Assembly (NCBI GenBank): GCA_964275745.1
Contig: CAXYCT010000017.1
Location: 34,171-98,170, forward strand
DNA from: an uncultured Woeseiaceae bacterium
GTDB lineage: Bacteria; Pseudomonadota; Gammaproteobacteria; Steroidobacterales; Woeseiaceae
DNA: 64,000 bases
Direction of reading: 5' to 3'
Under the pieces are notes generated by a model, which saw only the letters and a program-made list of their open reading frames with translations, did not search any database and was not told the DNA's origin. Positions 34,814-49,431 of the stretch are shown piece by piece. The position numbers were made by a program, and so were the translations under genes. How positions within the stretch are numbered: position 1 is the first letter of the stretch; each line of letters begins with the position of its first letter.

Positions 34814-36219
34814 GAATTACTCTTTATCTTTATCGGAAGTTTTATTTTAATCTCGAAATTATCTTTTGATGTAATGGCTTGTATTGTTCCCTTATTTAAT
34901 TCAATACCCTGTTTGGCAATGGCCAGCCCAAGACCAGAACCACTCTCATTTTCTTTTGTGTCTAATTGCTTTGATCGGTGAAAGGGTTCGAATATTTTTT
35001 CGCTATCTGATTGATTGACGCCTGAGCCATTATCGATCACTGATATTTGAATAATTTCTCTCTCTTTTGTTATTTCAAATAAGATGTCAGCACTGTTTGG
35101 TCCATATTTCACTGCATTACGTAAAATATTTTCTAGTGCACTTTTAAGAATAGATTCGTAACCAAAAAAATCTATACCAGGTATTGTCTTGAGAATTATT
35201 TTGTTATTTATTACTGAATTATTTTTGAATTCAAAATTAATATTTTCAATAACCTCATTTGCTAGTTCATTAAGGTTCATATATTTTTGAGGCTCATTTT
35301 TTGAGGCATCTAAACTAGAATATTTTAAGATACTACCAATTAACTCATCCAAAATAGTAATTTCTTTTTTGATTCGAAGGTATTCGATTTCACCATCGAT
35401 ATTTTTTTGATGAGCAATATCTAGCGCAACTAGCATTCTTGCCAGAGGAGAGCGAAGTTCATGCGAGATATTCCGAAGTAATTCTTCCGCCTGTTCTTCA
35501 TATTGAGATAATTTTCCGGACATTCTATTTATGTCACGAGCTAGGCTACCAATTTCATCTTTTCGATCACTTACCGATTCTGATACTTTAGTTAAGAAGT
35601 TACCACCAGCAATTGAGCGAGTTGCGTGTTTAAAATGCCTTATAGGCTTGGTTATGGCGCGTGAGAGTATATATGAGACTGAAATACTCAATAACATGAC
35701 ACAGATAAAAATTAACCAACGCATATTGTCATTAAATAAACCCTCCAAGGAGGTATTTTTTGGAAAAAAGTATAATTCAAAAATCTTTTTGTCTGGTCCA
35801 ATAAGAACAGATATTGAGTTTGCAGGTCTTAAATTATCTGGAATAATAAGATTTCTTCGCTCAGATTTTGTCCTTTTTAATTTTGGATTATGATGAGAGA
35901 GTTCAAAATGATTTTGCCAATTAACAATTCTTCTGGGAACCTTTCTTCCCAAAATATCTTCTTTGTTGTTATTCAGAAGAAATATTCTGAGTGGATATTG
36001 ATCTCTGTTATCAATATTTTTTAACCAAATTTTTAAGCCAGAGTATCCTTGTGTATTTAATATTTCTCCTGCTCTGATAACAGTCTCATCGATTTCAAAA
36101 TTAGTATAAATTTGTTCCATACGTTGATGATAGTAATAACCAGCCAAAGCCGCAAAGGTCATGGTGACAATAATTATCAACCAAAATGACGCAAAAATTC
36201 GAATAAATATATTTTTCAT
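34810..36219 (-). CDS. Sensor histidine kinase, CpxA-like
   Basis: It has two TM segments flanking a periplasmic region, a HAMP region, the H-box SHELRSPLARM, the N-box LRNAVKY and the G-boxes DNGSGV/GSGLGLAIAK. Confidence 0.85.
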   Translation of the reverse strand: MKNIFIRIFASFWLIIIVTMTFAALAGYYYHQRMEQIYTNFEIDETVIRAGEILNTQGYSGLKIWLKNIDNRDQYPLRIFLLNNNKEDILGRKVPRRIVNWQNHFELSHHNPKLKRTKSERRNLIIPDNLRPANSISVLIGPDKKIFELYFFPKNTSLEGLFNDNMRWLIFICVMLLSISVSYILSRAITKPIRHFKHATRSIAGGNFLTKVSESVSDRKDEIGSLARDINRMSGKLSQYEEQAEELLRNISHELRSPLARMLVALDIAHQKNIDGEIEYLRIKKEITILDELIGSILKYSSLDASKNEPQKYMNLNELANEVIENINFEFKNNSVINNKIILKTIPGIDFFGYESILKSALENILRNAVKYGPNSADILFEITKEREIIQISVIDNGSGVNQSDSEKIFEPFHRSKQLDTKENESGSGLGLAIAKQGIELNKGTIQAITSKDNFEIKIKLPIKIKSNS

Positions 36220-36227
36220 AGTTTAAA

Positions 36228-36935
36228 TTATTGATCGCCTATTAAGGCGTACCCAACTCCTCTTTGGCTATAGATAATGTCTTTTATTGCACCTAGTTTT
36301 TTAAGTTTTGTCCTTATATTGCTTATATGAGTATCAATACTTCTGTCGTAAGGAACGAATGAGCGCCCTAATGCATATTCACTTAATTCATCTTTATCCA
36401 CTGTATTACCTTGATTTATGGTAAGACAGGACAGTATTTCAAATTCTGTCCCAGTTAGTGTTAAGTTTAGATTATTGTATTTTGCTTGACGTGATTTTGC
36501 TGACAATTCAATCAGACCATAAGAGATATGATCTTGCTTGACATATTGTGATGAACGTCGAAGGATTGCTTTAATTCTTGCTAATAACTCTGGTGTACTA
36601 AAAGGTTTAGGAAGATAATCGTCAGCTCCAAGCTCAAGACCTAATATGCGATCTTTTTCTTCACCACTGGCCGTGAGCATTATTATAGGGATCGGATTAT
36701 CTTTTCTGATCTCTTTTAAGGTTGTTAATCCTGATATCCCCGGCAACATGATGTCTAAAATCAATAAATCATAATGGCCTAAAGAGCTAAGTGCATTTTC
36801 TTTGATTAGAGTAATTGCATGTTCACCACTGTGACAAGCCTCAACGTCTAATTGATATTGCGATAGAAAATCTTGCAATAATTCGCAAAGTTTTTTGTCA
36901 TCATCAATTAAAAGAATACTTTTTTTGCTGCTCAT
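36228..36935 (-). CDS. OmpR-family response regulator, CpxR-like
   Basis: The receiver domain (LLIDDD...LLILDIMLPG...K) plus a winged-helix output (…IDTHISNIRTKL…RGVGYAL). Confidence 0.9.
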   Translation of the reverse strand: MSSKKSILLIDDDKKLCELLQDFLSQYQLDVEACHSGEHAITLIKENALSSLGHYDLLILDIMLPGISGLTTLKEIRKDNPIPIIMLTASGEEKDRILGLELGADDYLPKPFSTPELLARIKAILRRSSQYVKQDHISYGLIELSAKSRQAKYNNLNLTLTGTEFEILSCLTINQGNTVDKDELSEYALGRSFVPYDRSIDTHISNIRTKLKKLGAIKDIIYSQRGVGYALIGDQ

Positions 36936-37108: not shown

Positions 37109-37642
37109 ATGATAAATATTAAAATTATACTAATGGTATTAATGATGATGTTTGCATGCACTGTATCTGCAGATGATCCTGAAACTAAAGAAATGTTATG
37201 GGGTGGAAAATTTGAGAAGATATCAAAATTTTTAAATTTAGATTTAGATCAGCAGAAAACCATTAAATCCATAATGTATTCCTTATCTGAGGAAATGGGA
37301 AAGAATAAAGAGAGGTTAACAAGACAAAAGAAAGCTTTGATAAAGCTTGATCCTAATGAGGATGACTATAAGAATAAACTTCTAGAACTATCAAATGAAA
37401 CGACTGTATTGATAAAAGAGCAGATAATGTTGCGAGGTCTATCTCGCGAAAAAATCAATGACGAGCTTGATGCTGATCAGCGTAAACTGCTAGACAAAGT
37501 ATTTACTAATATTGATTCTAAGGAATTAAAAAGAAATAAATTTAAACGAAACAGTGACGAAAAAAAATCTGATCATAATATGAGAAAAATGAATGATAAA
37601 TTAGATCGACGACTGAAAAAAAAGCGACGAGACAAGAGTTAG
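37109..37642 (+). CDS. Periplasmic CpxP/Spy-like protein (tentative)
   Basis: It has a signal peptide, a helical Lys/Glu-rich sequence, two LxxQ-type motifs (DLDQQK, DADQRK) and a basic tail. It is divergent from the CpxRA-like pair, as cpxP is in E. coli. Confidence 0.4.
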   Translation: MINIKIILMVLMMMFACTVSADDPETKEMLWGGKFEKISKFLNLDLDQQKTIKSIMYSLSEEMGKNKERLTRQKKALIKLDPNEDDYKNKLLELSNETTVLIKEQIMLRGLSREKINDELDADQRKLLDKVFTNIDSKELKRNKFKRNSDEKKSDHNMRKMNDKLDRRLKKKRRDKS

Positions 37643-37668
37643 CTGAACTTAATATTTCCTCTATTAAA

Positions 37669-37694
37669 GCGGTCATTTATTGACCGTTTTTTTT
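37669..37694 (+). terminator. Rho-independent terminator
   Basis: Hairpin GCGGTCA-TTTAT-TGACCGT followed by a T8 run. Confidence 0.65.
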
Positions 37695-37854
37695 ATTTAA
37701 ACGTAATAAATTGTATGTATTTATATGGTTACCCTAATAAAGTAAATAAAATAAGGTTATATTTAGTAATAGCTAAGACACCATGAAGTTTTCAAGGGTG
37801 GCAAGGTTTGAATTTAATGTTAATGTAAAACATCAAGAATGACTGGGGATTTTT

Positions 37855-38789
37855 ATGCTGATTCAAAAATATTTTGTTGGTTTAATCTTAATTATATTGT
37901 TGCAAAGTTGTGGAGTGACATACAGCGGTATTGGTGGGGTATGTCTGGTTCTTCAGGTGGTAGCAGCAGCAGTGGCGGTATGTCTGGTTCTTCAGGTGGT
38001 AGCAGCAGCAGTGGCGGTATGTCTGGTTCTTCAGGTGGTAGCAGCAGCAGTGGCGGTATGTCTGGTTCTTCAGGTGGTAGCAGCAGCAGTGGCGGTATGT
38101 CTGGTTCTTCAGGTGGTAGCAGCAGCAGTGGCGGTATGTCTGGTTCTTCAGGTGGTAGCAGCAGCAGTGGCGGTATGTCTGGTTCTTCAGGTGGTAGCAG
38201 CAGCAGTGGCGGTATGTCTGGTTCTTCAGGTGGTAGCAGCAGCAGTGGCGGTATGTCTGGTTCTTCAGGTGGTAGCAGCAGCAGTGGCGGTATGTCTGGT
38301 TCTTCAGGTGGAATTCGTGGTATGGATGGCCGAGGGTCAGGAAACCAACAAAATAGTGGCATGAATTACCCAAGTGAAACAAATGCTGAAAAACAAGCTA
38401 GACTTGAGGGTGATCTCGAGAGATCAGTTGGCGGGCTAGATGAGGTTCTAGGTCAAGAACAAAAAGAGATAGATTCAGTGGGTCGCAACACAGAAGGTTT
38501 TGGTGGAGACTCAAGAAATGGAGGTGGCGTTGGTCTTGGAAAACAGTCATCAGGAGGTGGTCAGAGAGGTGGTGAAGGGGATATTTCCAGCTCAAATGCT
38601 AGCCCAAAAACTGCATCTGTTGGCCAATTGAGTCAGGAGGAAATAGATGCTAGGACACCTGATGATATTCCTGATCTAATCAGTGAAGATATAGTCGCAA
38701 AGCAGTTGCGCGAAGCCGCTCTAACTGAGGGAGATGTAAAACTAAGAGAGCGATTATGGGAAGAGTATAGGAATTACAATCGATTATAA
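37855..38789 (+). CDS. Ser/Gly-repeat lipoprotein, with signal peptide and body out of frame by 1 nt as given
   Basis: The lipoprotein leader MLIQKYFVGLILIILLQSCG is in the frame of 37855. The repeat body (MSGSSGGSSSSGG)x9.5 plus a 160-aa C-terminal region is in the frame of 37839..38789. One C missing at about 37937 relative to the repeat consensus (GTGGCGGT vs GTGGGGT) separates the two. Confidence 0.55.
37941..38311 (+). repeat. Perfect 39-bp tandem repeat, 9.5 copies
   Basis: The unit ATGTCTGGTTCTTCAGGTGGTAGCAGCAGCAGTGGCGGT starts at 37941 + 39k (k = 0..9) with no substitutions. The last copy is truncated after 20 nt. Confidence 0.95.
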
Positions 38790-38823
38790 ATAAGAATAAT
38801 CAAACTATTTTGGTGCATAAAAA

Positions 38824-40044
38824 ATGAAGATTTTTTTTATAATATGTATAACCTTGATTATAACTCCAGCTTGTACGGTTTCGGAGGTTATTGATGCAGA
38901 TAGAACAACTTTGGATATTGCCAGTTTAAATATATCCGAGAACTTATTATTGGATGTTGGTGTGGTTAAATTTGATCCTGGAATCCCAGAAGAAAATGAT
39001 GCTGATAAGACTGGTATTTATGAAGAGATAAGAGAAACAGAGTCTCGATTTTTTCCTTATCACATCAAAGCAACACTTGAAAAAACTGGATATTGGGGCT
39101 CAGTCAGAGTTATCCCCTCAAGAACTGTCATTACAGATGTAATTATTAGTGGAAGGATTATTCGATCAGATGGAGAATATGCTTCTTTGTTAATAAAAGT
39201 CGAGGATATTACCGGTGAAGAGTGGTTTTCTCGAGAATACTCTACACAAACAGGATTAAGGTCATATTCTGAGGGTAGAGATAGGGCTGTAGATCCCTAC
39301 CAAAAGATTTTTAATGATTTTGCAAATGACTTACGTTTTTTCGCCGCTTCATTGCACTCCTCCGACAATAAAAGAATTCAACAGATCTCAGAGCTAATGT
39401 TTTTTACAAATATGGTGCCTTCTGTCTATGAACCATACTTAAGTAATAAAAATAACTTCATTCAACTTGTAAGGCTGCCCCCAGAAAATGATCCAATGGT
39501 AAAAAGACTTCGTGGAATTAGAGAGCGTGATCGATTGGTTGTTGATTCCATCAATGAGCATTATGCTAATTATTATTATGGTGTTGCTTTACCCTATGAA
39601 GGCTGGAGAAAAAAAGCGCGTGAAAACCAAGTTAGTATTAGGGATACGAAGCGGGCTGCGACTGTTAGAGCACTAATAGGTGTAGCTGTTACTGCAGGCT
39701 CGATGAATATGGATACCAGAGATACAAGTCGCTCAAGAAGAAATATAAAAAGAGCCACTCAGAGTGTTGGAATGGACCGTGGAATTAGAACAATAATAGA
39801 GGCTTGGCAGTTAAGACAATCAACAAACTCTTATCGTGCACAAATTGGAGAATTGTCTGAGTCGTTTATCGCTGAGGCAGCACCTTTGGTTATAGAGGTA
39901 GAAGGGCAATCAAGACGATTAACGGGTACTGCCGAATCGCAATACGAGGGCTGGAGAAAGATTTTAAAAGAAATAAATCAACTTGAAACAGAGATTCCTA
40001 GTCTAGAAGTGATTGAAGAGCCTCTTCAAATTAGCGATCAATAG
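38824..40044 (+). CDS. Lipoprotein of unknown function (406 aa)
   Basis: Lipobox LIITPAC. It sits 34 nt after the previous gene. I recognise no family. Confidence 0.65.
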   Translation: MKIFFIICITLIITPACTVSEVIDADRTTLDIASLNISENLLLDVGVVKFDPGIPEENDADKTGIYEEIRETESRFFPYHIKATLEKTGYWGSVRVIPSRTVITDVIISGRIIRSDGEYASLLIKVEDITGEEWFSREYSTQTGLRSYSEGRDRAVDPYQKIFNDFANDLRFFAASLHSSDNKRIQQISELMFFTNMVPSVYEPYLSNKNNFIQLVRLPPENDPMVKRLRGIRERDRLVVDSINEHYANYYYGVALPYEGWRKKARENQVSIRDTKRAATVRALIGVAVTAGSMNMDTRDTSRSRRNIKRATQSVGMDRGIRTIIEAWQLRQSTNSYRAQIGELSESFIAEAAPLVIEVEGQSRRLTGTAESQYEGWRKILKEINQLETEIPSLEVIEEPLQISDQ

Positions 40045-40057
40045 ATAAATAATTGTT

Positions 40058-42307
40058 GTGTCTAAGTTAATTAAAGATTTAGTATTAAATCAACGTTATC
40101 AGCTGGTAAGACGTCTTGGTGAAGGCGGTATGGCGACTGTTTGGCTCGCTTTTGATAAGAAATTAGAGATCCAAGTTGCATTGAAATTTCTCCATAAAAC
40201 CTTACGAGAAAATTTAAATTATCATCGTGCTTTTAAGAGGGAATGGAAGATTGCAAGCCATCTTATTCATCCTAACATTGTTCGTGTTTATGAGTTTTAT
40301 GAGGATCCAGTACGACCATTTTACTCGATGCAATTTATAGATGGACCACCAATATCAATCCTTAGCAAAGATGATCCAAAAAATATTCTTCCCCCAATTA
40401 GTTTGATTGCTGATGCTATAGATTACGCACATTCAAGGGAGGTTATACATGGTGATATAAAACTACATAACATCCTTTTAGATAAAAAAGGGCAACCATT
40501 TTTAATAGATTTTGGTGTGGCTGCTACATTTTCAGAGCTTACATTAACAATGAATCATGAGACCCCTTCTAAAGCTCTGCATTGTAATGAAGATATAAAT
40601 TCATTGGGTAAGTTAATTTACGAAGTTATTTTTGGTATACCTTTATTAAATGATACCAATAATGTTCCTGCTTTTAGTGAGGAGTTAAATGCAGAATTAA
40701 AAGTATTATTAGAGAGAATGATAGTTATCAATTTGGATATAAGAATCTCAGCGAAGGATGTGAAAGATTATCTTGCAGAGATTGGATATTTGGGAGGCAA
40801 CGCCAATCTTAGAAAAATTGATAAGGAAGAGCTTATTCAAGTTAAACCAATTTCAGTTGATGATTTAAAACTTAATTCAAAATTATTAAATGAGGCAGAA
40901 AAAGAAACGAATGGCATCTCAAAAAGAAATTTTTATTCAAGCCTAGGGTTTATTTTAATTTTATTTATGATCGTGATTTTTGTTTTACCAAGCAGTATTA
41001 ACTCGAATAAAAATATTGAGGATGTTACTAAATATGAAACTAATATAACCAAAAATATTGTGACTGAAAGTGATAGTTTAATTAAAAAATCCAGAATAAA
41101 AACAGATGAGACGCTGAGCGAATTGGTAACTTTGATTGATTTTTTGCAAAAAAAAGGCGTCGAAAAATGGGGTGGGCAAGTATATCAAGATATTAAAAAT
41201 AACTACAAAGAAGGAGACTCTTTATACTTGAATGGCAGATATGAATTAGCTCAAAAAAAATATATTGATACTTTGAATGCCTTAAATAGTCTATCCGAAC
41301 AAATGAATGAGATTTTAATGCTAAATCTCAATGCTGGAAAGGAAGCGCTTAAAAATGATAATTTTAATGATGCCATTATGTTTTTTGATATCACAGTGTC
41401 AATATCTCCAGATAACATAGAGTATAGTGACTTCTATAAAAGAGCTTTAAATCTTGAGGAGTTAATTGATCTCACGAGTGAAGGAATAGTGTTAGAAGGT
41501 AAAATGGATTTAAATTTAGCTAGAAAGAGGTATATAGCGGCTCAAGAATTAGATCCAGAAAATGAATTAGTTCGAGAGTTATTGGAAAATATCGAATCTA
41601 AGATTACTCGAAATAAATTTGAAATAAGTATGTCGGAGGGATTCGCAGCTTTAACAAATTATGATTTTCAATCTGCGAGAGCTTTATTTGAATCTGCCAA
41701 AGAAATTGATACTAATTCTATAGAACCATTGGATGCCATGATTCAGTTAGAAGAAAAAGAAAAAGATGTCTCAATTTTATTTCTAGAGGCGGAAAGTAAA
41801 GGTCATGAAGATATCGAGCAGTGGGGTCTCGCGATAGATACATATCAAAAATTGATCGAAATTGATGGCGATTTACAATTTGCCAAAATTGGTTTAATGA
41901 GATCTAAGCGTCGCCAGCAATTCTCTGAGGAAATGCAAAAATATATTGATGACTACGATAGTTTAAGTGACTCAGTAATAATGAAACGAGCCACTAAACT
42001 TCTTTTAGAAGCAGTGAAGTTAGATGATAAACCTCGTCTAAGAGGTCAGATTGCCGAACTTAAGCGATTGTTGAAACGGGCAAATACACCAATAAAAATT
42101 ACAATCATCTCTGACAATATAACTAAAGTTAGGATCTTTAGAGTTAGTGAGCTAGAGGTATTTAATGTTAAGCAATTTTCTCTTCGTCCAGGAAATTATA
42201 TTGCAATTGGCATAAGGGATGGTTATCGAGATGTGCGTGAAGAATTTAGAGTAACACCAGAAATACCAATATCAGTAGTTACCGTTATATGTGAGGAAAA
42301 AGTTTGA
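40058..42307 (+). CDS. Hanks-type Ser/Thr protein kinase with a TM segment and a TPR-like/PEGA-like periplasmic region
   Basis: GTG start. Motifs present: G-loop LGEGGMATVW, VALKF Lys, catalytic HGDIKLHNILL (HRD with R->G), IDFGVAA, and a TM at FYSSLGFILILFMIVIFVLPS. A long helical-repeat region and a C-terminal beta-rich module follow. Confidence 0.75.
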   Translation: MSKLIKDLVLNQRYQLVRRLGEGGMATVWLAFDKKLEIQVALKFLHKTLRENLNYHRAFKREWKIASHLIHPNIVRVYEFYEDPVRPFYSMQFIDGPPISILSKDDPKNILPPISLIADAIDYAHSREVIHGDIKLHNILLDKKGQPFLIDFGVAATFSELTLTMNHETPSKALHCNEDINSLGKLIYEVIFGIPLLNDTNNVPAFSEELNAELKVLLERMIVINLDIRISAKDVKDYLAEIGYLGGNANLRKIDKEELIQVKPISVDDLKLNSKLLNEAEKETNGISKRNFYSSLGFILILFMIVIFVLPSSINSNKNIEDVTKYETNITKNIVTESDSLIKKSRIKTDETLSELVTLIDFLQKKGVEKWGGQVYQDIKNNYKEGDSLYLNGRYELAQKKYIDTLNALNSLSEQMNEILMLNLNAGKEALKNDNFNDAIMFFDITVSISPDNIEYSDFYKRALNLEELIDLTSEGIVLEGKMDLNLARKRYIAAQELDPENELVRELLENIESKITRNKFEISMSEGFAALTNYDFQSARALFESAKEIDTNSIEPLDAMIQLEEKEKDVSILFLEAESKGHEDIEQWGLAIDTYQKLIEIDGDLQFAKIGLMRSKRRQQFSEEMQKYIDDYDSLSDSVIMKRATKLLLEAVKLDDKPRLRGQIAELKRLLKRANTPIKITIISDNITKVRIFRVSELEVFNVKQFSLRPGNYIAIGIRDGYRDVREEFRVTPEIPISVVTVICEEKV

Positions 42308-44733
42308 ATATTTCTCATCTAATTATCAGAAAAGTTGGAAAAGACGATGAACAAATACTGTTAGCTGAGAGCCAATTCAGTATAGGGACTAATGAAGATT
42401 GTGATGTTTTAATTCCAGGCCCAGGAAATACCTCTTTCTTTTCTATATTTGTATTTAACAATGACTTATTTATAGAGAGAGAAGAAAAAATTATTCCAAT
42501 TAAGATAAATGAAACAAACTTAATTGATAAATTGATTCTGTGTGACCAAGATAAAATTGAATTATTTGGAATAGAAATTACTGTTGAATTTAATAATAAT
42601 GAGATTATCTTATTTTTAAATATGAAAAATAGTGATTATCTTACACAGCCTCCAGAATTTATTAACGATGATAGTAATAATTATACTGAAGAAATAGAAG
42701 CGAAAATATTTTCACGCAATACATCTAAATTAGACAATCATGAGTTCAATTTAAATAACAAATGGAAATTTGTTATATCTGCCATATTGATGGTATTAAT
42801 GTTTATTTCATATCTTATCTTTAGTTCATATTCTATAAAATTCAACATTGATCCTCCAGATATAGATTCATTATCTATAGAAGGTACCTGGTTTGAAGTT
42901 CCACTGGGAGATCGTTCTTTGTTAAGATCTGGAACTCATTCTTTACGAATTAAGAAAACAGGTTATTATGACTTGAATCAAACTTTTGTTGTGGGAGAAG
43001 TAGATGATTTGATAGTTCCAGTAATTATGAAGAAGTTACCAGGTATTGTTTCTATCTATACTAATGCAGGATTAAATGCTCAAATTTCGCTTAATGGCTC
43101 ACTAGGGGCAGAGGGCTCATTTGAAGCAAAAGCAATAGAGGCAGGACAATATATTTTAAATATTACCTCAGATCGTTTTTTGCCTTTTTCAGATAAAATA
43201 GAAATTAAAGGGATGAATATCAAACAACATATTTTTGTTGATCTGATTCCCAGATGGGCCAATATAAGTATCGATTCTATACCTTCGGATGCCGTTATTT
43301 ATAGTAAAAATATAAAAATTGGTAACACGCCGGCTAATTTAGAGTTAATGGAGGGCACCCATGATTTATTGATCATTAAACAAGGTTATCAAGCCTTTGA
43401 TGGAAGATTTTCTGTAAAGGCTAATACTAGTCAGACAATAAAATCTATAAATCTAGAACCAGCAAATGCAGAGTTGTCTATCAAGACAATTCCAGTTGGT
43501 GCGAATATTAAAGTGAATGGACGTTATAGAGGTCAATCCCCATTGATTTTATCATTAATGCCTGATGAGGATTATGTCATTGCTTTTTCAAAAAGTGGGT
43601 TTGATGTTACGGAGAGAAAAATATACTTAGATCCAGCTCAACAGCAATCAATAGAGGTTGATTTAACTGCTCGAGTAGGGAAAGTTATTATTTCGGTTAA
43701 CCCACCGGATGCAGACATATATATTGATAATAAAAAACGAGGAAAAGGCAAGTTAGAGATTGAATTACCTACAATGAGTCATGATTTACTGATAAAAAAA
43801 GAGGGTTATGCTCCTTTCATTCGTGAAATACTTCCAAGATTGGATTATTTACAAAATATAGATGTGAAATTACTTACTGAAGATGAGTTTAGATTGAGAG
43901 ATATTCAGTCTTCATTAACAAATTCACAAGGACAAGTATTAAGAAGGATTGAGGCAGGGAAGTTTGTCATGGGAGCATCCCGTCGAGAAATGGGACGACG
44001 GGCTAATGAAGTTATACGAAACGTTGAATTAACTAAGCCATTTTTTATTGGCATTAATGAGGTCACGAATAAAGAATTTTCAAGATTTCGTCGACTTAAC
44101 TCAGCTGCAGCTGATATTCATTCTTCACTCCTAGCAGATAATAATCCAGTAGTACTTGTTAGCTGGTCAGATGCTGTAGAATATTGTAATTGGCTTAGCA
44201 ACCTAGAAGGTTTGGAGCCTGCCTATGTAAAGCGTTTTGAAAAATGGGAAAGGAAAAAAACTGTTTCAAATGGGTACCGATTACCATCTGAAGCCGAATG
44301 GTCATGGTCAATTAGATATCAGACAAAGAATACTACAACTGCTTATCCATGGGGAAGCCGGCTACCTCCAAGACGTAATTATGCCAACCTTGCCGATTTT
44401 TCGGCACGAAATATACTGCCAAATATTCTGCAAAATTATGATGATGGATACGCTTCAACTTCACCGGTGGGATCATTTGGAGCAAACTCACTTGGAATTT
44501 TTGATGGAAGTGGTAATGTTTCAGAGTGGATTAGTGATTATTATTCAATTCCAACTCCTGGAATTACAGAGACTATAATCGATCCAAAAGGACCTGAGTA
44601 TGGAGTACAGCATGTTATTCGAGGTTCGAGCTGGCGTCATTCTAGTGTGACTAAGTTGAGAGGCAGTTTTAGAGATTTTGGAAGTAAAGGACAAATAGAT
44701 ATCGGTTTTAGATTAGCTAGAAATATTAATTAA
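42304..44733 (+). CDS. FHA-like domain / TM / five PEGA-like repeats / FGE(SUMF1)-fold domain protein
   Basis: TTG start overlapping the kinase stop (TTTGA) behind a GAGGA RBS. The N-terminus FSIGTNEDCDVLIPG...ELFGIEITVEF is FHA-like but degenerate, and the TM is WKFVISAILMVLMFISYLIF. The PEGA-like units include e.g. ISIDSIPSDAVIYSKNIKIGNTPANLELMEGTHDLLIIKQGY. The C-terminus carries RLPSEAEWSW, GNVSEWISDYY and RGSSWRH. Confidence 0.7.
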   Translation: MNISHLIIRKVGKDDEQILLAESQFSIGTNEDCDVLIPGPGNTSFFSIFVFNNDLFIEREEKIIPIKINETNLIDKLILCDQDKIELFGIEITVEFNNNEIILFLNMKNSDYLTQPPEFINDDSNNYTEEIEAKIFSRNTSKLDNHEFNLNNKWKFVISAILMVLMFISYLIFSSYSIKFNIDPPDIDSLSIEGTWFEVPLGDRSLLRSGTHSLRIKKTGYYDLNQTFVVGEVDDLIVPVIMKKLPGIVSIYTNAGLNAQISLNGSLGAEGSFEAKAIEAGQYILNITSDRFLPFSDKIEIKGMNIKQHIFVDLIPRWANISIDSIPSDAVIYSKNIKIGNTPANLELMEGTHDLLIIKQGYQAFDGRFSVKANTSQTIKSINLEPANAELSIKTIPVGANIKVNGRYRGQSPLILSLMPDEDYVIAFSKSGFDVTERKIYLDPAQQQSIEVDLTARVGKVIISVNPPDADIYIDNKKRGKGKLEIELPTMSHDLLIKKEGYAPFIREILPRLDYLQNIDVKLLTEDEFRLRDIQSSLTNSQGQVLRRIEAGKFVMGASRREMGRRANEVIRNVELTKPFFIGINEVTNKEFSRFRRLNSAAADIHSSLLADNNPVVLVSWSDAVEYCNWLSNLEGLEPAYVKRFEKWERKKTVSNGYRLPSEAEWSWSIRYQTKNTTTAYPWGSRLPPRRNYANLADFSARNILPNILQNYDDGYASTSPVGSFGANSLGIFDGSGNVSEWISDYYSIPTPGITETIIDPKGPEYGVQHVIRGSSWRHSSVTKLRGSFRDFGSKGQIDIGFRLARNIN

Positions 44734-44746
44734 CAAAATAAAAAAT

Positions 44747-45070
44747 GTGAAAAAAATGAAGTGCAGCATACGTATATATAAAAATATACTATTGATCTTA
44801 ATAGTATTTATATCTATTTCTTCTTCTTTTTCACAGGAAAATAACTCAGTGATTGAAACTTTAGATCCCCTCATGGAGAAAAACGAAAATCAAGATGCAG
44901 ATGCAATCCCAGTTAAAAAACTAGCGTCAAAATCGACTGATAACACTACTGATGAATCAGAAATAGTCTATGATATTGATGATCAATCATATGAAGAAGC
45001 TGATGATGATTTTATACCCTCAGAGGAGATACCAGCTGATGAGCCAATTCCATTTCCAACAAGTATCTAA
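44747..45070 (+). CDS. Small acidic secreted protein (107 aa)
   Basis: A signal peptide (ILLILIVFISISSSFSQ) followed by an Asp/Glu-rich, low-complexity sequence. The start is either GTG 44747 or ATG 44756. Confidence 0.5.
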   Translation: MKKMKCSIRIYKNILLILIVFISISSSFSQENNSVIETLDPLMEKNENQDADAIPVKKLASKSTDNTTDESEIVYDIDDQSYEEADDDFIPSEEIPADEPIPFPTSI

Positions 45071-45121
45071 AGAAAGTTTAATTTAAAATCATATTTATTT
45101 ATCAAATAAAGAGAAATATAG

Positions 45122-45928
45122 ATGAAAAAAAATAATATACCCATTGAATTTGTATACCAACTATTTGCTCTGATTATTGCAATTATTATTGTACATGGCT
45201 ATTACGTCTCAGTAGTGAGGCCAAATGCCAATCAAATAATTCTGGAGCAGAATATAGAAGCAGAGATGAATTCTGATTATATAAGAGAGAGATCCACCTG
45301 GGTCTTGGTTAAAGATTTAGAACAAGAATCATGCTTTGTATTGATGTTTTGGGCGCTCGCAATTATGGGTTTTAAAGCTAATTCTCTTCTAAGGGAGAGG
45401 AAATTACTTGATGAAAATTTAATATCTATAGTGGATGGCATGAAGATTCTTCCAGAAGATACTCGGAATTTGGAGAGACAAATTGAAGTTTTATCTGATA
45501 AACAAAAAGCAATGGTTTTACCAAGAGCTCTACTAAATGCCTTGAGAAGGTTTGGTACTTCGAAAAATATTCAAGATGTGTCTGTGAATACACACACGAT
45601 TTTTGACTCAGAAGCTGAAAGATTGGAGTCAGAGCTTTCGATGATCCGTTATATTTCCTGGGCGATTCCATCAATAGGATTTATAGGTACAGTTAGAGGT
45701 ATTGGTGATGCACTAGGTCAGGCTGATATTGCTGTTCAAGGTGATATCTCAGGAGTAACACAAAGTCTTGGAGTGGCATTTAATTCAACTTTTATTGCAC
45801 TTTTGATTAGTATTTTTTTGATGTTTTTGGTACATCAATTGCAGTTATTACAAGAAAGGCTTGTTTTTGATAGCGAAAATTATGCGAATGACCGACTGAT
45901 TCGACATATGAAAATAGACGTAAATTAA
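45122..45928 (+). CDS. MotA/TolQ/ExbB-family proton-channel protein
   Basis: The N-terminal TM helices and the C-terminal signature AIPSIGFIGTVRGIGDALG...GVAFNSTFIALLISIFLMFLV parallel ExbB/TolQ (…GLFGTVWGI…AL.TTA.GL…). Confidence 0.75.
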   Translation: MKKNNIPIEFVYQLFALIIAIIIVHGYYVSVVRPNANQIILEQNIEAEMNSDYIRERSTWVLVKDLEQESCFVLMFWALAIMGFKANSLLRERKLLDENLISIVDGMKILPEDTRNLERQIEVLSDKQKAMVLPRALLNALRRFGTSKNIQDVSVNTHTIFDSEAERLESELSMIRYISWAIPSIGFIGTVRGIGDALGQADIAVQGDISGVTQSLGVAFNSTFIALLISIFLMFLVHQLQLLQERLVFDSENYANDRLIRHMKIDVN

Positions 45929-45935
45929 AGACTAG

Positions 45936-47312
45936 GTGAAGAAATTGTCATACGCAACCTTATATGTGAATGATGCTAATATAACTCTTTTGGAAGATGG
46001 GAAGATTTTATACTGCCAACCAAGTTGTGTTTGGGTAAAAAATGATGAGATTGAGTTTGGTGCTCAGGCACTTAGTAAATCTCGCATCATGCCGCAAAAT
46101 ATAGATACTCATTATTGGTCAAATCTTTCTACGTTAAAATATACAAGTGATCATAATAAGCACATCTCTTCAGCAGATATTGTAAGTCGAGAGCTCGAGA
46201 TTATAAATTCAATTAAGTCTGATGATTTACCGTTGCTGATCGTCATACCTCCGTATTTAAATAATCAGCAGCTAAGCTTATTTCTTGGTATTGCAAATGA
46301 TTTGGATATAAAAATTTTAGGCTTTATAGAGTCATCAATAGCATCAACACGGCGCGAGTATATTGCTGCTAAGTTAGTACATATTGATCTTCACTTACAT
46401 TGCCTATCTCTATCTCTAATGAGTCAAACCGATAAATTGAGTGCTGATAAAATGTTTATTATCGATGACTGTGGACAGTCTGAATTTGACGCATCTTGGA
46501 TAAAAATGATATCTCAATCTTTTATTAAGCAATGTAGATTTGACCCGCTCTATGCTGCTGAATCTGACCAGCAGATAATTAATAATTTGTCATTCTGGGT
46601 GGCAAAATCAATATCTCAGAAAACTGTCCATCTAGAAATTGAATATGGTAATCAAGTCTATGAAAGTGATATAAATTCATCAGATTTTATTGAAGCGGTT
46701 ATGCCTCTTTATAAACATATTATCAATAAATTAAGAGCCATATTTGAGGCAGAGGATTTACCCGCTATTCAGTTAACAAATTTGATTGCCAAACTTCCTG
46801 GGTTGGCGATTTTAATGAAACAAAAGTTATCAGCTGCAGTTTATGAGAATGATGAAGGTTGTGCTGTCATTGGAGCTTCAGAAAGATTTTCAATTAAGGA
46901 GCAAGAAGATGGTCCTCTAAAAATTATTAAATCATTACCATTGGATCAATCTGCAATTTCGATTAATAAAGTTAATACTGAATCTACTAATAATGATAAA
47001 CCAAGTCACATCTTATTTGAAAATATTGCTTATCCTATAAGTTTGACGCCGATAATGATTGGATCTGATCCCACGCAGACAGATAATATTTTACCAATTT
47101 CATCAAATAAAACAGGTATCTCAAGAGATCATTGTTCGCTATTTGTTAAAAACAACAAATGCATCCTTAATGATTTGAGTCGATATGGAACTTACCTGAA
47201 TAACCAAAGAGTTGAAGGACCGTCAATAGTAAGTGTTGGGGATAAAATTAGAATTGGTTCTCCTGGTATAGAAATAACCTTAATTACAATAAGGAAGGCT
47301 ATTGGCTCGTAG
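45936..47312 (+). CDS. Degenerate Hsp70/actin-fold domain + C-terminal FHA domain protein (cytoplasmic)
   Basis: LLIVIPPYLNNQQLSLFLGIANDLDIKILGFIESSIAST mirrors DnaK's VITVPAYFND.QR...AG..V.RIINEPTAAA. The phosphate motifs are degenerate (LYVNDAN; IDLHLHC). The C-terminal FHA reads IGSDP...ISRDHCSL...NDLSRYGTYLNNQRV. GTG start. Confidence 0.6.
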   Translation: MKKLSYATLYVNDANITLLEDGKILYCQPSCVWVKNDEIEFGAQALSKSRIMPQNIDTHYWSNLSTLKYTSDHNKHISSADIVSRELEIINSIKSDDLPLLIVIPPYLNNQQLSLFLGIANDLDIKILGFIESSIASTRREYIAAKLVHIDLHLHCLSLSLMSQTDKLSADKMFIIDDCGQSEFDASWIKMISQSFIKQCRFDPLYAAESDQQIINNLSFWVAKSISQKTVHLEIEYGNQVYESDINSSDFIEAVMPLYKHIINKLRAIFEAEDLPAIQLTNLIAKLPGLAILMKQKLSAAVYENDEGCAVIGASERFSIKEQEDGPLKIIKSLPLDQSAISINKVNTESTNNDKPSHILFENIAYPISLTPIMIGSDPTQTDNILPISSNKTGISRDHCSLFVKNNKCILNDLSRYGTYLNNQRVEGPSIVSVGDKIRIGSPGIEITLITIRKAIGS

Positions 47313-48396
47313 AAGAAGACAAACTGAAGTATTTAGCTTGTCATTTCTGGATTGCATGTGTTGTGGTTTTGGCGCTGTAATTTTACTTTTTATGATTATA
47401 AATTCACAAATTAAGAATCAAGTTAATGTAGATCAAACATATCCTGAAAATAAAGCTAACCAATTAAAGTTTGATTTATTAGAAACTAAAAAACGCCTTG
47501 TTTTAGCTAAAGATACCTTTAAAGATCTTGATCAACAAAATACTGCTATTGAAAACGAAATCGATCAAATGTTATTGCTATTGAAGCAATTAAAGAGAGA
47601 ACTGGAAGAGGGAAGTCTTGATACGTTAGCCAAAAATGAAAGTATTGAAAAATTAAAATCAGATATTGAAAAATTAGATCAGGAGCGAGAGAGAATGCTC
47701 GCAGTTGCTTCTCGGGTTAAATCTGGTGGGCAAGTCAGGAGCTTCACTGGTGATGGTGATCGCCAGTATCTAACTGGCTTAAAGGTGGGTGGCGAGAGAA
47801 TTTTGTTACTCATCGATACATCAGCCAGCATGCTGGATCGAAAAATAATTAATATTCTTAGACGTAGAAATATGTCGGATGAAGTTAAACTTAGATCTGA
47901 GAAATGGCGACAAGCAGTCTCTAGTATAGATTGGCTTGCCGCCCAATTTCCAAAAGAAAGTCAGTTTCAAATTTATACTTTTAATAATATGACTAAATCT
48001 GTAGTTGCTGATAGTGCTGGTGATTGGGTTGATGTTGGAGATGGAAAAGAACTGGATGATGCTATAAAGACGTTACGCCGAACTATTCCTCAAAATGGAA
48101 CAAATCTTAAAGATGCATTCACAATCATAAATCAATTAAATCCCCGTCCAGATAACGTTATTCTTTTGATAGATAGCTTACCGACTATGAATAAAGCTGA
48201 AACTGACCGAGGTATGATTACAGGTCAAGAACGTCTTAATCTATACTATGAAGCTGAAACTGAAATACCAAGTGGTATACCAATGAATATATTGCTTTAT
48301 CCTATGGAGGGTGATTATAACGCTGCCATTGCTTATTGGTTATTAGCTTACCGAACTGGTGGCTCATTTATGAGTATCAGCAAGGACTGGCCTTAG
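47302..48396 (+). CDS. ExbD/TolR-like TM anchor + coiled coil + vWA domain protein 1
   Basis: TTG start after an AAGGAAGG RBS. The N-terminus is MARRRRQTEVFSLSFLDCMCCGFGAVILLF (basic stretch, then a TM with Asp). A heptad-rich region follows, then a vWA domain with the MIDAS motif LLIDTSASM. Confidence 0.7.
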   Translation: MARRRRQTEVFSLSFLDCMCCGFGAVILLFMIINSQIKNQVNVDQTYPENKANQLKFDLLETKKRLVLAKDTFKDLDQQNTAIENEIDQMLLLLKQLKRELEEGSLDTLAKNESIEKLKSDIEKLDQERERMLAVASRVKSGGQVRSFTGDGDRQYLTGLKVGGERILLLIDTSASMLDRKIINILRRRNMSDEVKLRSEKWRQAVSSIDWLAAQFPKESQFQIYTFNNMTKSVVADSAGDWVDVGDGKELDDAIKTLRRTIPQNGTNLKDAFTIINQLNPRPDNVILLIDSLPTMNKAETDRGMITGQERLNLYYEAETEIPSGIPMNILLYPMEGDYNAAIAYWLLAYRTGGSFMSISKDWP

Positions 48397-48404
48397 GAGA
48401 TGCA

Positions 48405-49391
48405 ATGAGAAAACGAAGAAATATTGAAGCTTTTAGCCTCTCTTTTTTGGATTGCATATGTTGTGGCTTTGGTGCTGTCGTATTGTTGTTGGTTCTAAGT
48501 AAGCTTTATGATCCTAATTTTGTGTCTACAGATGAAGCTTCAGATGAAGTAATTATTTCTTTAGAAGAGCAGTTAAAAAATGCTCAAGATGAGGTAATAA
48601 ATACCATAAATTCTAGAAATAATGTTAAAAAAGAAGTTACTGATAAAAAAGTTAATTTAGATATTCTACAAAATGAATTGAAGAGTGTGAAGGGCAGGTA
48701 TGAGTTAAGTTTATCTGAACCAGAGATGCTTCAGGCGAGTGAGGATAATCTTGAGGAGGCAAAACAGAAAATTTCAGAAGAAATAAAAAGATTACAACCT
48801 AATTATAAAAGAGCAGCAAATGAAGCAATAGGTGGAATTCCTGTCGACAGTGAGTACATTATTTTTGTCATCGATACATCAGGAAGCATGCAATCCAAAT
48901 GGGCATGGGCGGAGAGAAAATTAGGAGAAGTATTAGATGTTTACCCAACAGTAAAGGGTTTACAAATAATGAATGATAATGGCAGTTTTATGTTTCAACA
49001 ATATGGACGTAATTGGCTCCCAGATACCCCTCAACTAAGGCAATCAATAAAGAATACAATGCGTCAATGGGCGCCTTTTAGTGACAGTGATCCTTCTGAT
49101 GGAATTATATATGCCATCCAGTCATTTTGGTCACCAGAAAAAAAGATAAGTATCTATGTTTTTGGTGATGAATTTCAAGGAAACTCTATGGAGAAGGTAT
49201 TAAGAGATATTGATCGAATTAATATTGAGAACGAGGAAGGAGATCGCCTTGTTAGGATTCACGCTGTTGGTTTCCCCTATTCTTTTGGTGGAAGAAGTAT
49301 TCCTCAGAGTTCCCAAAGATTTGCTGGGCTGATGCGACTTTTGTGCGAGAGGAATGGTGGAACGTTCGTGGCGTTAACAAATAATGATTAA
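48405..49391 (+). CDS. ExbD/TolR-like TM anchor + coiled coil + vWA domain protein 2 (paralogue)
   Basis: ATG 48405 after an AGGAGA RBS. The N-terminus is MRKRRNIEAFSLSFLDCICCGFGAVVLLL, followed by a coiled-coil-like region and a vWA domain with the MIDAS motif FVIDTSGSM. The ORF-track start at 48336 overlaps the previous gene. Confidence 0.7.
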   Translation: MRKRRNIEAFSLSFLDCICCGFGAVVLLLVLSKLYDPNFVSTDEASDEVIISLEEQLKNAQDEVINTINSRNNVKKEVTDKKVNLDILQNELKSVKGRYELSLSEPEMLQASEDNLEEAKQKISEEIKRLQPNYKRAANEAIGGIPVDSEYIIFVIDTSGSMQSKWAWAERKLGEVLDVYPTVKGLQIMNDNGSFMFQQYGRNWLPDTPQLRQSIKNTMRQWAPFSDSDPSDGIIYAIQSFWSPEKKISIYVFGDEFQGNSMEKVLRDIDRINIENEEGDRLVRIHAVGFPYSFGGRSIPQSSQRFAGLMRLLCERNGGTFVALTNND

Positions 49392-49399
49392 TAAAAAGT

Positions 49400-49431
49400 A
49401 ACCCCAGCTTATTATGACTGGGGTTTTTTGT
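49400..49431. terminator. Bidirectional rho-independent terminator
   Basis: Hairpin AACCCCAG (49400-49407) / CTGGGGTT (49418-49425) followed by a T run, with an A-rich tract on the 5' side. It lies between convergent genes. Confidence 0.8.

Follow-up and report, generated by a model that had tools for sequence, protein, structure and literature searches.

Known membrane motors of the 5:2 type, such as MotAB, ExbBD, and TolQR, are mostly homodimeric in the B subunit. Two different B subunits have a precedent in AglQ/AglS, from the Myxococcus gliding motor, and a role of 5:2 motors in defence is known from Zorya. A motor class designated "transpore-helix vWA" has been predicted, with AlphaFold 3 models (PMC12204202, Mol Biol Evol 2025); in the model of this class, the B helices are in the pore with an Asp pair inside a Thr ring, and the vWA genes are predominantly found in heterologous pairs.

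The locus described here lies in a 64,000-nucleotide stretch of DNA from an uncultured Woeseiaceae bacterium, referred to as the window. An earlier note had proposed that three of its genes encode a stator-like motor with one A and two different B subunits. The assembly proposed for these genes matches the published class; the motor idea is supported but had already been published (PMC12204202) and is not new.

Organization and distribution of the operon

All ORFs and sequence strings quoted in the earlier note were found at the coordinates given there, and its start for B2 (48405) is the true one, the longest ORF, from 48336, not being so. The three genes are the tail of a nine-gene operon with the following features (evidence in parentheses):

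37666..37690, terminator-like hairpin upstream of gene 1
37855..38789, + strand, gene 1, lipoprotein whose acidic/helical C-terminal domain is conserved, with a linker of G/S-rich repeats (signal, orthologue)
38824..40044, + strand, gene 2, conserved lipoprotein of 406 aa (lipobox ...ITPAC, conserved order)
40058..42307, + strand, gene 3, Ser/Thr protein kinase-TM-TPR-like protein (Pfam, TM scan, motifs)
42304..44733, + strand, gene 4, FHA-like-TM-PEGA-FGE-like protein (Pfam, NCBIfam)
44747..45070, + strand, gene 5, small secreted acidic protein (position, C-terminal motif)
45122..45928, + strand, gene 6, A subunit of the MotA/TolQ/ExbB family (Pfam, NCBIfam, TolQ alignment, orthologues, TM scan)
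45936..47312, + strand, gene 7 (X), Hsp70-NBD-like plus FHA protein of 458 aa (Pfam, AF2, Foldseek)
47302..48396, + strand, gene 8, B1 (Pfam, homologues' domains, alignments, hhalign, periodicity, TM scan)
48405..49391, + strand, gene 9, B2 (B2 orthologue alignment, VWA_2 matches, hhalign, periodicity, TM scan)
49400..49425, no strand assigned, G+C-rich hairpin between B2 and a convergent azurin gene (operon 3' end)

The gene order is kept in approximately 50 genomes from several phyla. It was observed in Woeseiaceae, Chromatiales, and Steroidobacteraceae, and in Myxococcota, Spirochaetales, and Deltaproteobacteria MAGs; a reduced version occurs in Verrucomicrobiota. Genes within the block overlap or abut, as at 42304-42307 (genes 3 and 4) and at 47302-47312, where the stop of gene 7 lies over the start of B1, and terminator-like hairpins flank the block. 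The B genes had been placed directly behind A; they are instead separated from it by gene 7, which the earlier note did not mention, its three genes having been picked from the nine-gene module.

It is highly improbable that the cluster is a Zorya-type anti-phage defence system in which the MotAB-like unit senses phage perturbation of the envelope. The A subunit gave a weak match to ZorA (E 1.4e-3), the kinase matched the kinase models of PD-T4-6 and mad6, and a defence function of 5:2 motors has its precedent in Zorya itself; however, these PADLOC matches concern generic kinase and MotA domains only. The other six proteins scanned against PADLOC revealed no defence family, four having no match and B1 and B2 weak coiled-coil matches, and no nuclease or other effector gene was detected with Pfam and NCBIfam. 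Housekeeping genes lie on both sides of the block, and its azurin neighbour is shared by Woeseiaceae loci down to approximately 70% identity; its G+C content is that of the window except for a G-rich repeat stretch at 38-40 kb, and no relatives were found among 2.9 million viral contigs. Unlike in Zorya, the long stalk would be periplasmic and carried by the B subunits, not cytoplasmic on A.

The A subunit and the B1/B2 pair

The product of gene 6 (268 aa) belongs to the MotA/TolQ/ExbB family, as had been proposed: residues 140-248 match Pfam PF01618 MotA_ExbB with 51.7 bits (E 9.3e-14; cut-off, 22.9 bits). In a gapless alignment with E. coli TolQ, T190 (codon 45689-45691) corresponds to T145 and T223 (45788-45790) to T178, and both of these pore Thr residues are invariant, together with the surrounding IGFIGTVRGIG and AFNST motifs, in 45 A orthologues. 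Four TM helices with MotA-type topology are predicted. No ExbD/TolR/MotB-type gene was detected among the nine genes by Pfam and NCBIfam.

B1 and B2 are paralogous across 315 columns (hhalign probability 99.9, E 3.9e-36) with 28% identity. Each has a basic tail followed by a single TM helix, at residues 11-33 in B1 (47332-47400) and 10-32 in B2 (48432-48500), and the two helices are nearly identical. The helix Asp, Asp17 in B1 (47350-47352) and Asp16 in B2 (48450-48452), is kept in 100 of 101 B1-type representatives and in all 21 B2 orthologues. Family membership of A and conservation of this Asp, on which the earlier note had staked the motor idea, were thus both observed. G22 and G24 are near-invariant, indicating a small-residue face on the helix. 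The C-x-C-C motif described as common to both helices is conserved in the B2 lineage only; in B1, the third Cys alone is conserved (position 18 is C, V, or I and position 20 is S or C), and some variants have none of these Cys residues. Homology of the helix to ExbD/TolR/MotB could not be detected, since a transpore-helix profile matched no ExbD, TolR, MotB, ZorB, or GldM chain in PDB; "ExbD/TolR-like" is therefore a positional and functional analogy. In agreement with the earlier note, Pfam and NCBIfam scans of B1 and B2 found no ExbD or OmpA-type domain.

The helix is followed by a strict heptad repeat of approximately 100 residues, which confirms the coiled coil of the earlier note; in both proteins the periodicity has a sharp peak at 3.5 residues. 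Hydrophobicity power at period 3.5 was 56 for B1 (approximately residues 40-140, 47419-47721) and 51 for B2 (38-140, 48516-48824), compared with 4-6 for shuffled sequences, and 0 of 2000 shuffles reached the observed values. Both proteins end in a vWA domain whose MIDAS is conserved. In B1 (vWA approximately residues 165-364) it consists of D172-x-S174-x-S176 (47815-47829), T267, and D291, all conserved among B1 sequences, and in B2 (approximately 150-328) of D157-T-S-G-S161 (48873-48887), DTSGS being invariant in the 21 orthologues. The window's B1 scored 25.3 bits with VWA_2, just below the Pfam cut-off of 27, and B1 homologues carry precomputed PF13519/PF13768 matches; VWA_2 was matched by 15 of the 21 B2 orthologues.

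Both genes are present in every locus extending far enough, and they are ancient, always co-occurring paralogues whose separation predates the divergence of the phyla. This argues against two homodimeric motors, A5:B1-B1 and A5:B2-B2, sharing one A and differing in their vWA heads, with no heteromeric 5:1:1 complex. Such an arrangement appears doubtful, although a homodimeric B is usual in MotAB, ExbBD, and TolQR and the near-identical helices would allow either subunit to self-pair. The stalks of B1 and B2 are equal in length and in the same register, as expected of a heterodimeric coiled coil, and AglQ/AglS already combines two different B subunits. Heterologous pairs also predominate among these genes (PMC12204202).

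Another reading is that B1 and B2 are membrane-anchored vWA scaffolds (BatA/BatB-like or PpkA-like) in Ser/Thr-kinase envelope sensing, A being separate or working with a B encoded elsewhere. The undetectable helix homology would agree with this, as would two loci in which no A gene adjoins the B pair: L056 retains X, B1, and B2 (Asp included) along with the whole periplasmic module and has no MotA-like gene within 10 kb, and L057 has the B1-B2 pair only. The pair therefore does not strictly require an A subunit encoded in cis. The domain set (outer-membrane lipoprotein, FGE-fold, vWA, kinase, FHA) also parallels that of the motor-less TagQR-PpkA-Fha1 pathway. We nevertheless consider this reading unlikely. 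It is difficult to see why a single-pass helix should bury an invariant Asp if it does not handle ions, even where no A is encoded in cis; no gene of the operon is better conserved than A (57-63% identity across phyla), which adjoins X-B1-B2 in all 45 scorable loci and for which Pfam and NCBIfam revealed no alternative partner among the operon's products; and in the published AF3 models the helices lie within the pore (PMC12204202).

Accessory proteins

The two lipoproteins (genes 1 and 2) are presumed to be in the outer membrane. Gene 1 is apparently frameshifted in the window, with its lipoprotein signal (MLIQKYFVGLILIILLQSC) in the 37855 frame and its body in the 37839 frame. It contains a tandem repeat (39 nt x 9.7, 37934-38311), the first copy of which lacks one C compared with the repeat consensus; an intact orthologue is present in locus L011 (705-1520), and conservation of the C-terminal part extends to most loci. 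Gene 2 had no Pfam or NCBIfam match, and its order is kept in loci of several phyla. Its AF2 model has a mean pLDDT of 69, with residues approximately 40-215 at 80-93. For the N-terminal alpha/beta domain, Foldseek showed a weak resemblance to the TolB N-domain and LptE (E approximately 2e-3, low TM-score); the model of the C-terminal half, which is helical, is poor.

Gene 3 encodes a transmembrane kinase with a periplasmic TPR domain. Its cytoplasmic kinase domain (Pfam Pkinase, E 1.4e-26; VALK, HGD...N, and DFG motifs) is followed by a TM helix (296-314), a TPR-like region, and a C-terminal beta-rich domain. Kinase-less variants keep the periplasmic part alone, with TPR matches in L056, and in both variants examined the kinase domain and the FHA domains are missing jointly. 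No phosphatase gene and no identified phospho-acceptor for the kinase/FHA layer were found.

The product of gene 4 is an inner-membrane PEGA/FGE-fold protein with a single TM helix (156-174). Pfam matches were FGE-sulfatase (E 9e-42) and PEGA (E 1e-39, three stretches), and the match to NCBIfam GldK/PorK (E 3e-30) was below the model cut-off. The N-terminal cytoplasmic domain is only weakly FHA-like, with FHA matched in 3 of 13 orthologues at a best E of 0.0035. The FGE-sulfatase-fold domain lacks the catalytic Cys pair, having RGSSWRHSSVTKLRGSFR compared with GGSFLCDPDFCHGYR in a stand-alone FGE (30422-31252), and is therefore probably a binding module, by analogy with TagR or PorK.

Of 47 loci, 45 have a small gene 5-type ORF between the FGE and A genes, those of Myxococcota, Spirochaetales, and Deltaproteobacteria MAGs among them; the ORF was also found in L055 and L056. 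Its N-terminus is hydrophobic, with a signal peptide judged by eye in most loci, and its extreme C-terminus is conserved as F[IV]P[ST]xE[IV]..D....[FY]P[TS][DN]I-COOH.

The gene 7 protein is cytoplasmic, with no TM segment in the TM scan, and carries a C-terminal FHA domain (residues 374-441; Pfam E 1.9e-12). Its AF2 model (mean pLDDT 90.1, pTM 0.87) showed an Hsp70 nucleotide-binding-domain-like (ASKHA) fold at residues approximately 1-350, with Foldseek matches to DnaK/BiP/Hsc70 (E down to 4.5e-17) and TM-scores of 0.65-0.73 (target-normalised; rmsd approximately 4 A) against isolated NBDs. ATP-binding motifs are partly kept, with D13 invariant and HIDLSLH in place of DLGGGT.

Proposed assembly and role

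Taken together, we think it fairly probable that the products of the three genes make up the core of a 5:2-type membrane motor driven by ions, within a nine-gene, envelope-spanning, kinase/FHA-linked module. A MotA/TolQ-like pentamer would enclose the N-terminal helices of B1 and B2, with D17 and D16 facing the T190/T223 Thr ring and carrying protons; the proposed 5:1:1 stoichiometry is suggested by the strict co-occurrence of B1 and B2. The B1-B2 coiled coil, roughly 15 nm long, would reach into the periplasm and end in two different vWA/MIDAS heads, replacing a peptidoglycan-binding or TonB-coupling domain.

Proton-motive force could then be used to pull or twist whatever partners the MIDAS heads hold in the periplasm or at the outer membrane. 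The gene 5 product, through its acidic C-terminal peptide, and the lipoproteins are candidates for such partners, as is the FGE-fold domain, by analogy with the binding of TagR by PpkA-vWA. On the cytoplasmic side, the kinase/FHA layer may switch the machine on or read its mechanical state through phosphothreonine-dependent docking. The likeliest role predicted is that of a proton-motive-force-driven, phospho-regulated trans-envelope force transducer or sensor, and what is added here to the published class is that its motor belongs to a conserved module of nine genes, envelope-spanning and kinase-linked, of which it would form the core.

Organization and conservation of the nine-gene module

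The nine proteins encoded on the plus strand at 37839–49391 were compared by tblastn with 54 genome loci, and the gene order was found to be the same in these loci wherever the contig reached. The genes are as follows.

Genes of the module (window positions)
Gene 1: 37855–38789, plus strand, G/S-repeat lipoprotein
Gene 2: 38824–40044, plus strand, lipoprotein
Gene 3: 40058–42307, plus strand, Ser/Thr kinase–TM–TPR protein
Gene 4: 42304–44733, plus strand, FHA-like–TM–PEGA–FGE-fold protein
Gene 5: 44747–45070, plus strand, small secreted protein
Gene 6 (A): 45122–45928, plus strand, MotA/TolQ/ExbB-type subunit, 268 aa
Gene 7 (X): 45936–47312, plus strand, protein encoded between A and B1, 458 aa
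Gene 8 (B1): 47302–48396, plus strand, TM helix, coiled coil and vWA, 364 aa
Gene 9 (B2): 48405–49391, plus strand, TM helix, coiled coil and vWA, 328 aa

An earlier note had read 45122–49391 as one channel-type gene followed by two paralogues. A, B1 and B2 are indeed present, but the stretch holds four plus-strand ORFs, not three, X having been passed over.

The module was found in Woeseiaceae, Chromatiaceae/Chromatiales and Steroidobacteraceae, as well as in MAGs labelled Myxococcota, Spirochaetales and Deltaproteobacteria. The nearest genome relatives (L001, 91% identity) place the window in a Woeseiaceae gammaproteobacterium of low G+C. A was the most conserved gene (57–63% identity in distant taxa) and X the least (22–28%). 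Terminator-like hairpins flank the module at 37666–37690 and 49400–49425, and in G+C content it does not depart from the chromosome around it, except for a G-rich repeat stretch at 38–40 kb. Housekeeping genes (azurin, ilvIH, proBA) lie at its flanks, and the azurin neighbour is retained in marine, low-G+C Woeseiaceae loci (L001–L004 and L009–L011). A scan of viral contigs detected no relatives.

These surroundings bear on a Zorya-like role in phage defence. The module and ZorA–ZorB have in common a 5:2-type unit that bears a coiled coil of great length. In Zorya this extension is cytoplasmic and belongs to the A subunit, ZorB binds peptidoglycan, and the effectors ZorC/D/E follow; none of these traits was seen here. 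In PADLOC, ZorA (E = 1.4e-3, with A) was the sole Zorya match and no other Zorya model was matched, so that membership was rejected. As the PADLOC matches were generic ones (the kinase) apart from this weak one, effectors and viral relatives are absent, and the context is that of the core genome, a defence function is highly improbable.

Directly upstream of the operon, and divergent from it, are genes for a HAMP histidine kinase (34810–36219, minus strand) and an OmpR-type response regulator (36228–36935, minus strand). Next to them, at 37109–37642 (plus strand), lies the gene for a small helical protein that is secreted and very basic, and this gene precedes the operon in locus L011 also. 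By eye, two L-x-x-Q-type motifs make the protein look CpxP/Spy-like, a likeness that Pfam did not support.

In gene 1, the lipoprotein signal (MLIQKYFVGLILIILLQSC) and the conserved body are in different frames. The gene contains a 39-nt tandem repeat of 9.7 copies (37934–38311, 99% matches) with a G-run at 37936–39; the first copy reads GGTGGGGTATG against the consensus GGTGGCGGTATG and is hence shorter by one base, whereas L011 has an intact orthologue. Either the assembly is wrong at this point, or the repeat tract contains a genuine frameshift or phase switch. For gene 2, the AF2 model was confident for the N-domain alone, and the weak resemblance of this modelled domain to LptE and the TolB N-domain (Foldseek E approximately 2e-3, TM-score at most 0.35) is a hint only. 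The gene 3 kinase (40058–42307) is of the non-RD type (HGD for HRD), with a very short activation segment in which no APE motif could be recognised; the periplasmic part of the protein ends in a beta-rich domain, which occurs also as a separate protein in the kinase-less variants.

Gene 4 encodes an FGE-fold domain (Pfam, E = 9e-42), and its best NCBIfam match was GldK/PorK (residues 612–807, E = 3e-30), which scored 105.7 bits where the cut-off is 350. Read against the motif of catalytic FGE enzymes, the domain is without the Cys pair, and its role is probably one of binding. The product of 30422–31252, a lipoprotein-type FGE-sulfatase protein that stands alone (Pfam, E = 6e-63), keeps the GGSFLC...C of catalytic FGEs. 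The N-terminus of gene 4 was tried as an FHA domain and is called FHA-like only, with matches in 3 of 13 orthologues at E of at least 0.0035 and the canonical GR/SxxH absent.

The gene 5 product has a signal-peptide-like hydrophobic N-terminus and a hypervariable acidic middle. In 45 of 47 loci, from several phyla, it ends in the near-invariant F[IV]P[ST]xE[IV]..D....[FY]P[TS][DN]I-stop. Small proteins of this type were located at the same position in L001–L054 and in the variant loci L055 and L056. The stop codon always comes directly after the motif, which suggests that a free C-terminus is recognised by a TPR, MIDAS or similar module.

The A subunit and the paired vWA proteins

The Pfam match of A to PF01618 (MotA_ExbB), at residues 140–248, scored 51.7 bits (E = 9.3e-14) and so lies above the gathering cut-off of 22.9. 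The pore threonines T145 and T178 of Escherichia coli TolQ fell on T190 and T223 of A in a gap-free phmmer alignment, and the segments IGFIGTVRGIG and AFNST, which include both threonines, were invariant across 45 A orthologues. These results bear out the assignment of A to the MotA/ExbB type, and A resembles the channel subunits of ExbB–ExbD, TolQ–TolR and MotA–MotB in both the domain and the two pore threonines. Hydropathy segments were located at 6–24, 72–90 and 219–237; counting an amphipathic helix inside the Pfam domain, A would have the four TM helices of the MotA-type topology, yet its best scores were to the TolQ and ExbB models. Since its scores to the TolQ and ExbB equivalogs (NCBIfam) and to ZorA were weak, A forms a separate clade of the MotA/TolQ/ExbB family.

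The longest ORF for B2 begins at 48336. The MRKRR start picked by the earlier note is the one shared by all orthologues, and every peptide string quoted in that note was found in the window. B1 and B2 share 28% identity over the N-terminal half (BLASTP), and profile–profile comparison extended their homology over 315 columns (probability 99.9, E = 3.9e-36). Both carry a basic tail and one hydrophobic segment. An exhaustive homologue search yielded 1,548 clusters at 50% identity from metagenomes. In an alignment of 112 full-length sequences, Asp17 of the B1-type helix was present in 100 of 101 informative rows, with F15, L16, C21, G22 and G24 near-invariant, position 18 being C, V or I and position 20 S or C. 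Among 21 B2 orthologues, the helix Asp was conserved in all 21, LSFLD and two of the three Cys were invariant, and the remaining Cys was kept in at least 90%. The proposed conservation of the membrane Asp was thus confirmed; the C-x-C-C motif ascribed to both helices holds in the B2 lineage and is not shared family-wide, as positions 18 and 20 of B1 show.

The description of both proteins as ExbD/TolR-like stands for the basic tail, the single TM segment and the conserved Asp, which lies approximately six residues into the membrane and is of the essential type known from ExbD, TolR and MotB. The B helix reads F-L-D-C-M where ExbD has P-F-I-D-V-M. The description fails for sequence homology, no Pfam, NCBIfam or PDB profile match being obtained. 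A 42-column profile built from 35 B N-termini was searched against the PDB at E ≤10 and gave chance matches alone (E ≥0.47), with no ExbD, TolR, MotB, ZorB or GldM among them, and so does not support homology of the helix to ExbD/TolR/MotB. 'ExbD/TolR-like' thus describes an analogous position and context. Pfam and NCBIfam detected no ExbD (PF02472), OmpA-like or TonB-type domain in B1 or B2; as had been noticed from the sequence, a coiled coil and a vWA domain stand in their place. The module thus differs from ExbB–ExbD, TolQ–TolR and MotA–MotB in having two different B subunits without the ExbD fold, plug, OmpA-like domain or TonB/TolA partner.

Over residues approximately 40–140 of both proteins, hydrophobic periodicity was sharp at 3.5 residues, not 3.6, with a power of 56 (B1) and 51 (B2) against 4–6 in shuffles; none of 2000 shuffles reached the observed values. 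Many PDB coiled-coil chains were matched by both the B1 and B2 profiles. The best or near-best PDB match of both coiled-coil profiles was 8qox_B, a 475-aa 'conserved membrane protein' (E = 0.002). An uninterrupted coiled coil of approximately 100 residues would reach approximately 15 nm, at 0.15 nm per residue.

The Pfam VWA_2 model scored near or below its cut-off in B1 and B2 of the window themselves (25.3 bits against 27 for B1). It was matched by 15 of the 21 B2 orthologues, and PF13519/PF13768 are annotated in many B1 homologues. The MIDAS residues of B1 (D172, S174, S176, T267 and D291) were conserved across approximately 110 representatives; in the 21 B2 orthologues DTSGS and GD were invariant, with a conserved S-x-S at the Thr position. 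Both B proteins therefore carry a vWA domain with MIDAS, as claimed.

A motor class named transpore-helix vWA (TPH-vWA) was predicted in 2025 (Mol Biol Evol, PMC12204202). Its vWA genes occur mostly in heterologous pairs, lack the SHLS motif and are found mainly in Proteobacteria and Verrucomicrobia, and AF3 models of an A pentamer around a B dimer were reported (PMC12204202). The window locus shows every feature described: a TolQ/MotA-like gene adjoins two different vWA genes, a tolR, exbD or motB gene is absent from the cluster, the N-terminal helices have the conserved Asp and no SHLS motif or His (absent from both B1 and B2), and the distribution covers Proteobacteria and Verrucomicrobia. 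The locus was matched to the class by these described features; look-ups of the homologue clusters returned no Idiomarina names, the reference of the class being Idiomarina loihiensis (PMC12204202). The motor interpretation of A, B1 and B2 is therefore supported and not new, having already been predicted in that paper, and we consider it probable that the three proteins form a motor core. Two homodimeric motors, one of B1 and one of B2, sharing a common A subunit are an unlikely arrangement.

Protein X, variant loci and a putative kinase–FHA layer

X has an FHA domain at its C-terminus (Pfam, E = 1.9e-12) and no TM segment. Its AF2 model, computed from an alignment of 49 homologues, had a pLDDT of 90.1 and a pTM of 0.87. 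Among the 50 PDB matches listed by Foldseek, only Hsp70-family (Hsp70/Hsp110) structures were found, with E down to 4.5e-17 and TM-scores of 0.65–0.73 against isolated nucleotide-binding domains. As modelled, the N-terminal domain thus has the Hsp70 nucleotide-binding fold; at the sequence level, searches of the PDB with the single sequence and with a profile gave FHA matches only and no Hsp70. The phosphate-1 residue D13 and P288 are invariant and G289 is nearly so. HIDLSLH replaces the glycine-rich phosphate-2 loop DLGGGT, so ATPase activity of X is uncertain. The stop of X overlaps the start of B1, suggesting coupled expression.

Three variant loci were found. L055, from Puniceicoccaceae (Verrucomicrobiota), retains the PEGA–FGE protein, a small protein ending in EMPSDV, A, an X-like protein, B1 and B2; the kinase domain and FHA are absent from this locus. 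The metagenomic L056 (8084–12197) retains both lipoproteins, the periplasmic part of gene 3, the PEGA–FGE protein, the small protein, X, B1 and B2, and the kinase, the FHA-like domain of the PEGA–FGE protein and the FHA of X are all absent. L057 (7736–9768) has the B1–B2 pair only. In L055 and L056 the kinase, the FHA of X and the FHA-like part of the PEGA/FGE protein are thus missing together, whereas approximately 50 loci have both kinase and FHA; their joint absence suggests that these domains are a single layer of regulation that an older core later acquired.

No MotA-like gene was found within 10 kb at L056. The chief reservation about the motor model is that the B pair is not always beside an A gene. 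The TM Asp is kept in the B pairs of both L056 and L057, and the Cys are lost in the L056 pair and kept in that of L057. Retention of the Asp in a B pair lacking an adjacent A suggests, without proving it, that the A subunit is encoded elsewhere. Alternatively, B1 and B2 might be non-motor vWA scaffolds in a kinase sensing complex, a reading to which we give little credence.

Comparison with known systems and proposed mechanism

Ion-driven 5:2 motors power flagella, Ton and Tol transport, gliding, type 9 secretion and Zorya defence. In the gliding motor of Myxococcus xanthus, AglR–AglQ–AglS, one TolQ-like A subunit is combined with two different B subunits in a trans-envelope complex that ends in the vWA protein CglB; AglQ and AglS are ordinary TolR-like proteins, and the vWA is on a separate outer-membrane lipoprotein. 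The present module likewise has a single TolQ-like A and two different B subunits, but the Glt proteins are absent. With PorL/GldL–PorM/GldM of the type 9 secretion system it shares a B subunit with a long periplasmic stalk and an associated FGE-sulfatase-fold protein (the PorK/GldK ring; gene 4 here). The FGE-fold protein here, in contrast, is anchored in the inner membrane and carries PEGA repeats. NCBIfam revealed no homologues of GldL, GldM or GldN and no type 9 secretion genes; with these unmatched and gene 4 at 105.7 bits against 350 for GldK, membership in PorKLMN/GldKLMN was rejected.

The module resembles the TagQRST–PpkA–Fha1–PppA pathway of Pseudomonas aeruginosa in its envelope-spanning set of domains: an outer-membrane lipoprotein, a COG1262 protein, a periplasmic vWA, a transmembrane Ser/Thr kinase and an FHA reader. 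COG1262, to which TagR belongs, is the FGE/SUMF1 family. Here, however, the vWA is on the B subunits and not, as in PpkA, on the kinase, and a MotA-like channel is present. The T6SS threonine-phosphorylation pathway itself was rejected, as T6SS core genes, a PppA/PP2C phosphatase and a TagST-type ABC complex are absent from the nine genes and the flanks examined. TagR of P. aeruginosa is anchored through the lipoprotein TagQ and has as its periplasmic partner the vWA domain of PpkA; by analogy the FGE-fold domain is a candidate ligand for the vWA domains of B1 and B2.

The following mechanism is proposed for the motor reading. In line with the AF3 models published for the class, five A subunits would enclose the B1 and B2 helices, and proton flow through the Asp and Thr sites would make the two parts rotate against each other. 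A heterodimeric coiled coil would carry two distinct MIDAS heads far into the periplasm, where they may hold an acidic ligand, candidates being the gene 5 C-terminal peptide, the gene 4 FGE-fold domain and the lipoproteins. The kinase and FHA domains might gate assembly or report load through phosphothreonine docking, and X is a candidate cytoplasmic partner of the 85-residue loop of A or of the B tails. That the module acts as a force transducer or sensor under kinase control is put forward tentatively. The full picture, an undescribed trans-envelope machine in which a heteromeric 5:1:1 proton motor has MIDAS 'hands' that grip the ...FPxDI-COOH tail of the small secreted protein and/or the FGE-fold domain or lipoproteins close to the outer membrane, its rotation or load being coupled in the cytoplasm to X and the kinase, is more speculative and somewhat doubtful.

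The text of PMC12204202 is confined to the linkage of tolQ and vWA genes, and literature searches for the extended operon gave nothing beyond it; the locus described here has also a coiled-coil stalk, an Hsp70-like/FHA gene, a kinase, a PEGA/FGE-fold protein, lipoproteins and a small protein with a C-terminal motif. The extended conserved module, the co-occurrence of kinase and FHA, and the variant loci are what the present analysis adds.

Each further output module of a 5:2 motor reveals one more way for cells to deliver inner-membrane energy to the outer envelope. The TPH-vWA axle itself ends in metal-dependent adhesion domains, and a peptidoglycan anchor and a TonB/TolA-type adaptor are absent. 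The class is widespread, with more than 1,500 clusters at 50% identity in metagenomes; marine sediment Woeseiaceae are among its carriers. Its conserved companions are concrete candidates for the load, ligand and regulation of the motor, and these partner hypotheses are testable by genetics and multimer modelling. If the full picture holds, the module would serve as a mechanosensor or force transducer that is driven by the motor and controlled through phosphothreonine, with an output unrelated to the Ton, Tol, flagellar, gliding, type 9 secretion and Zorya systems.
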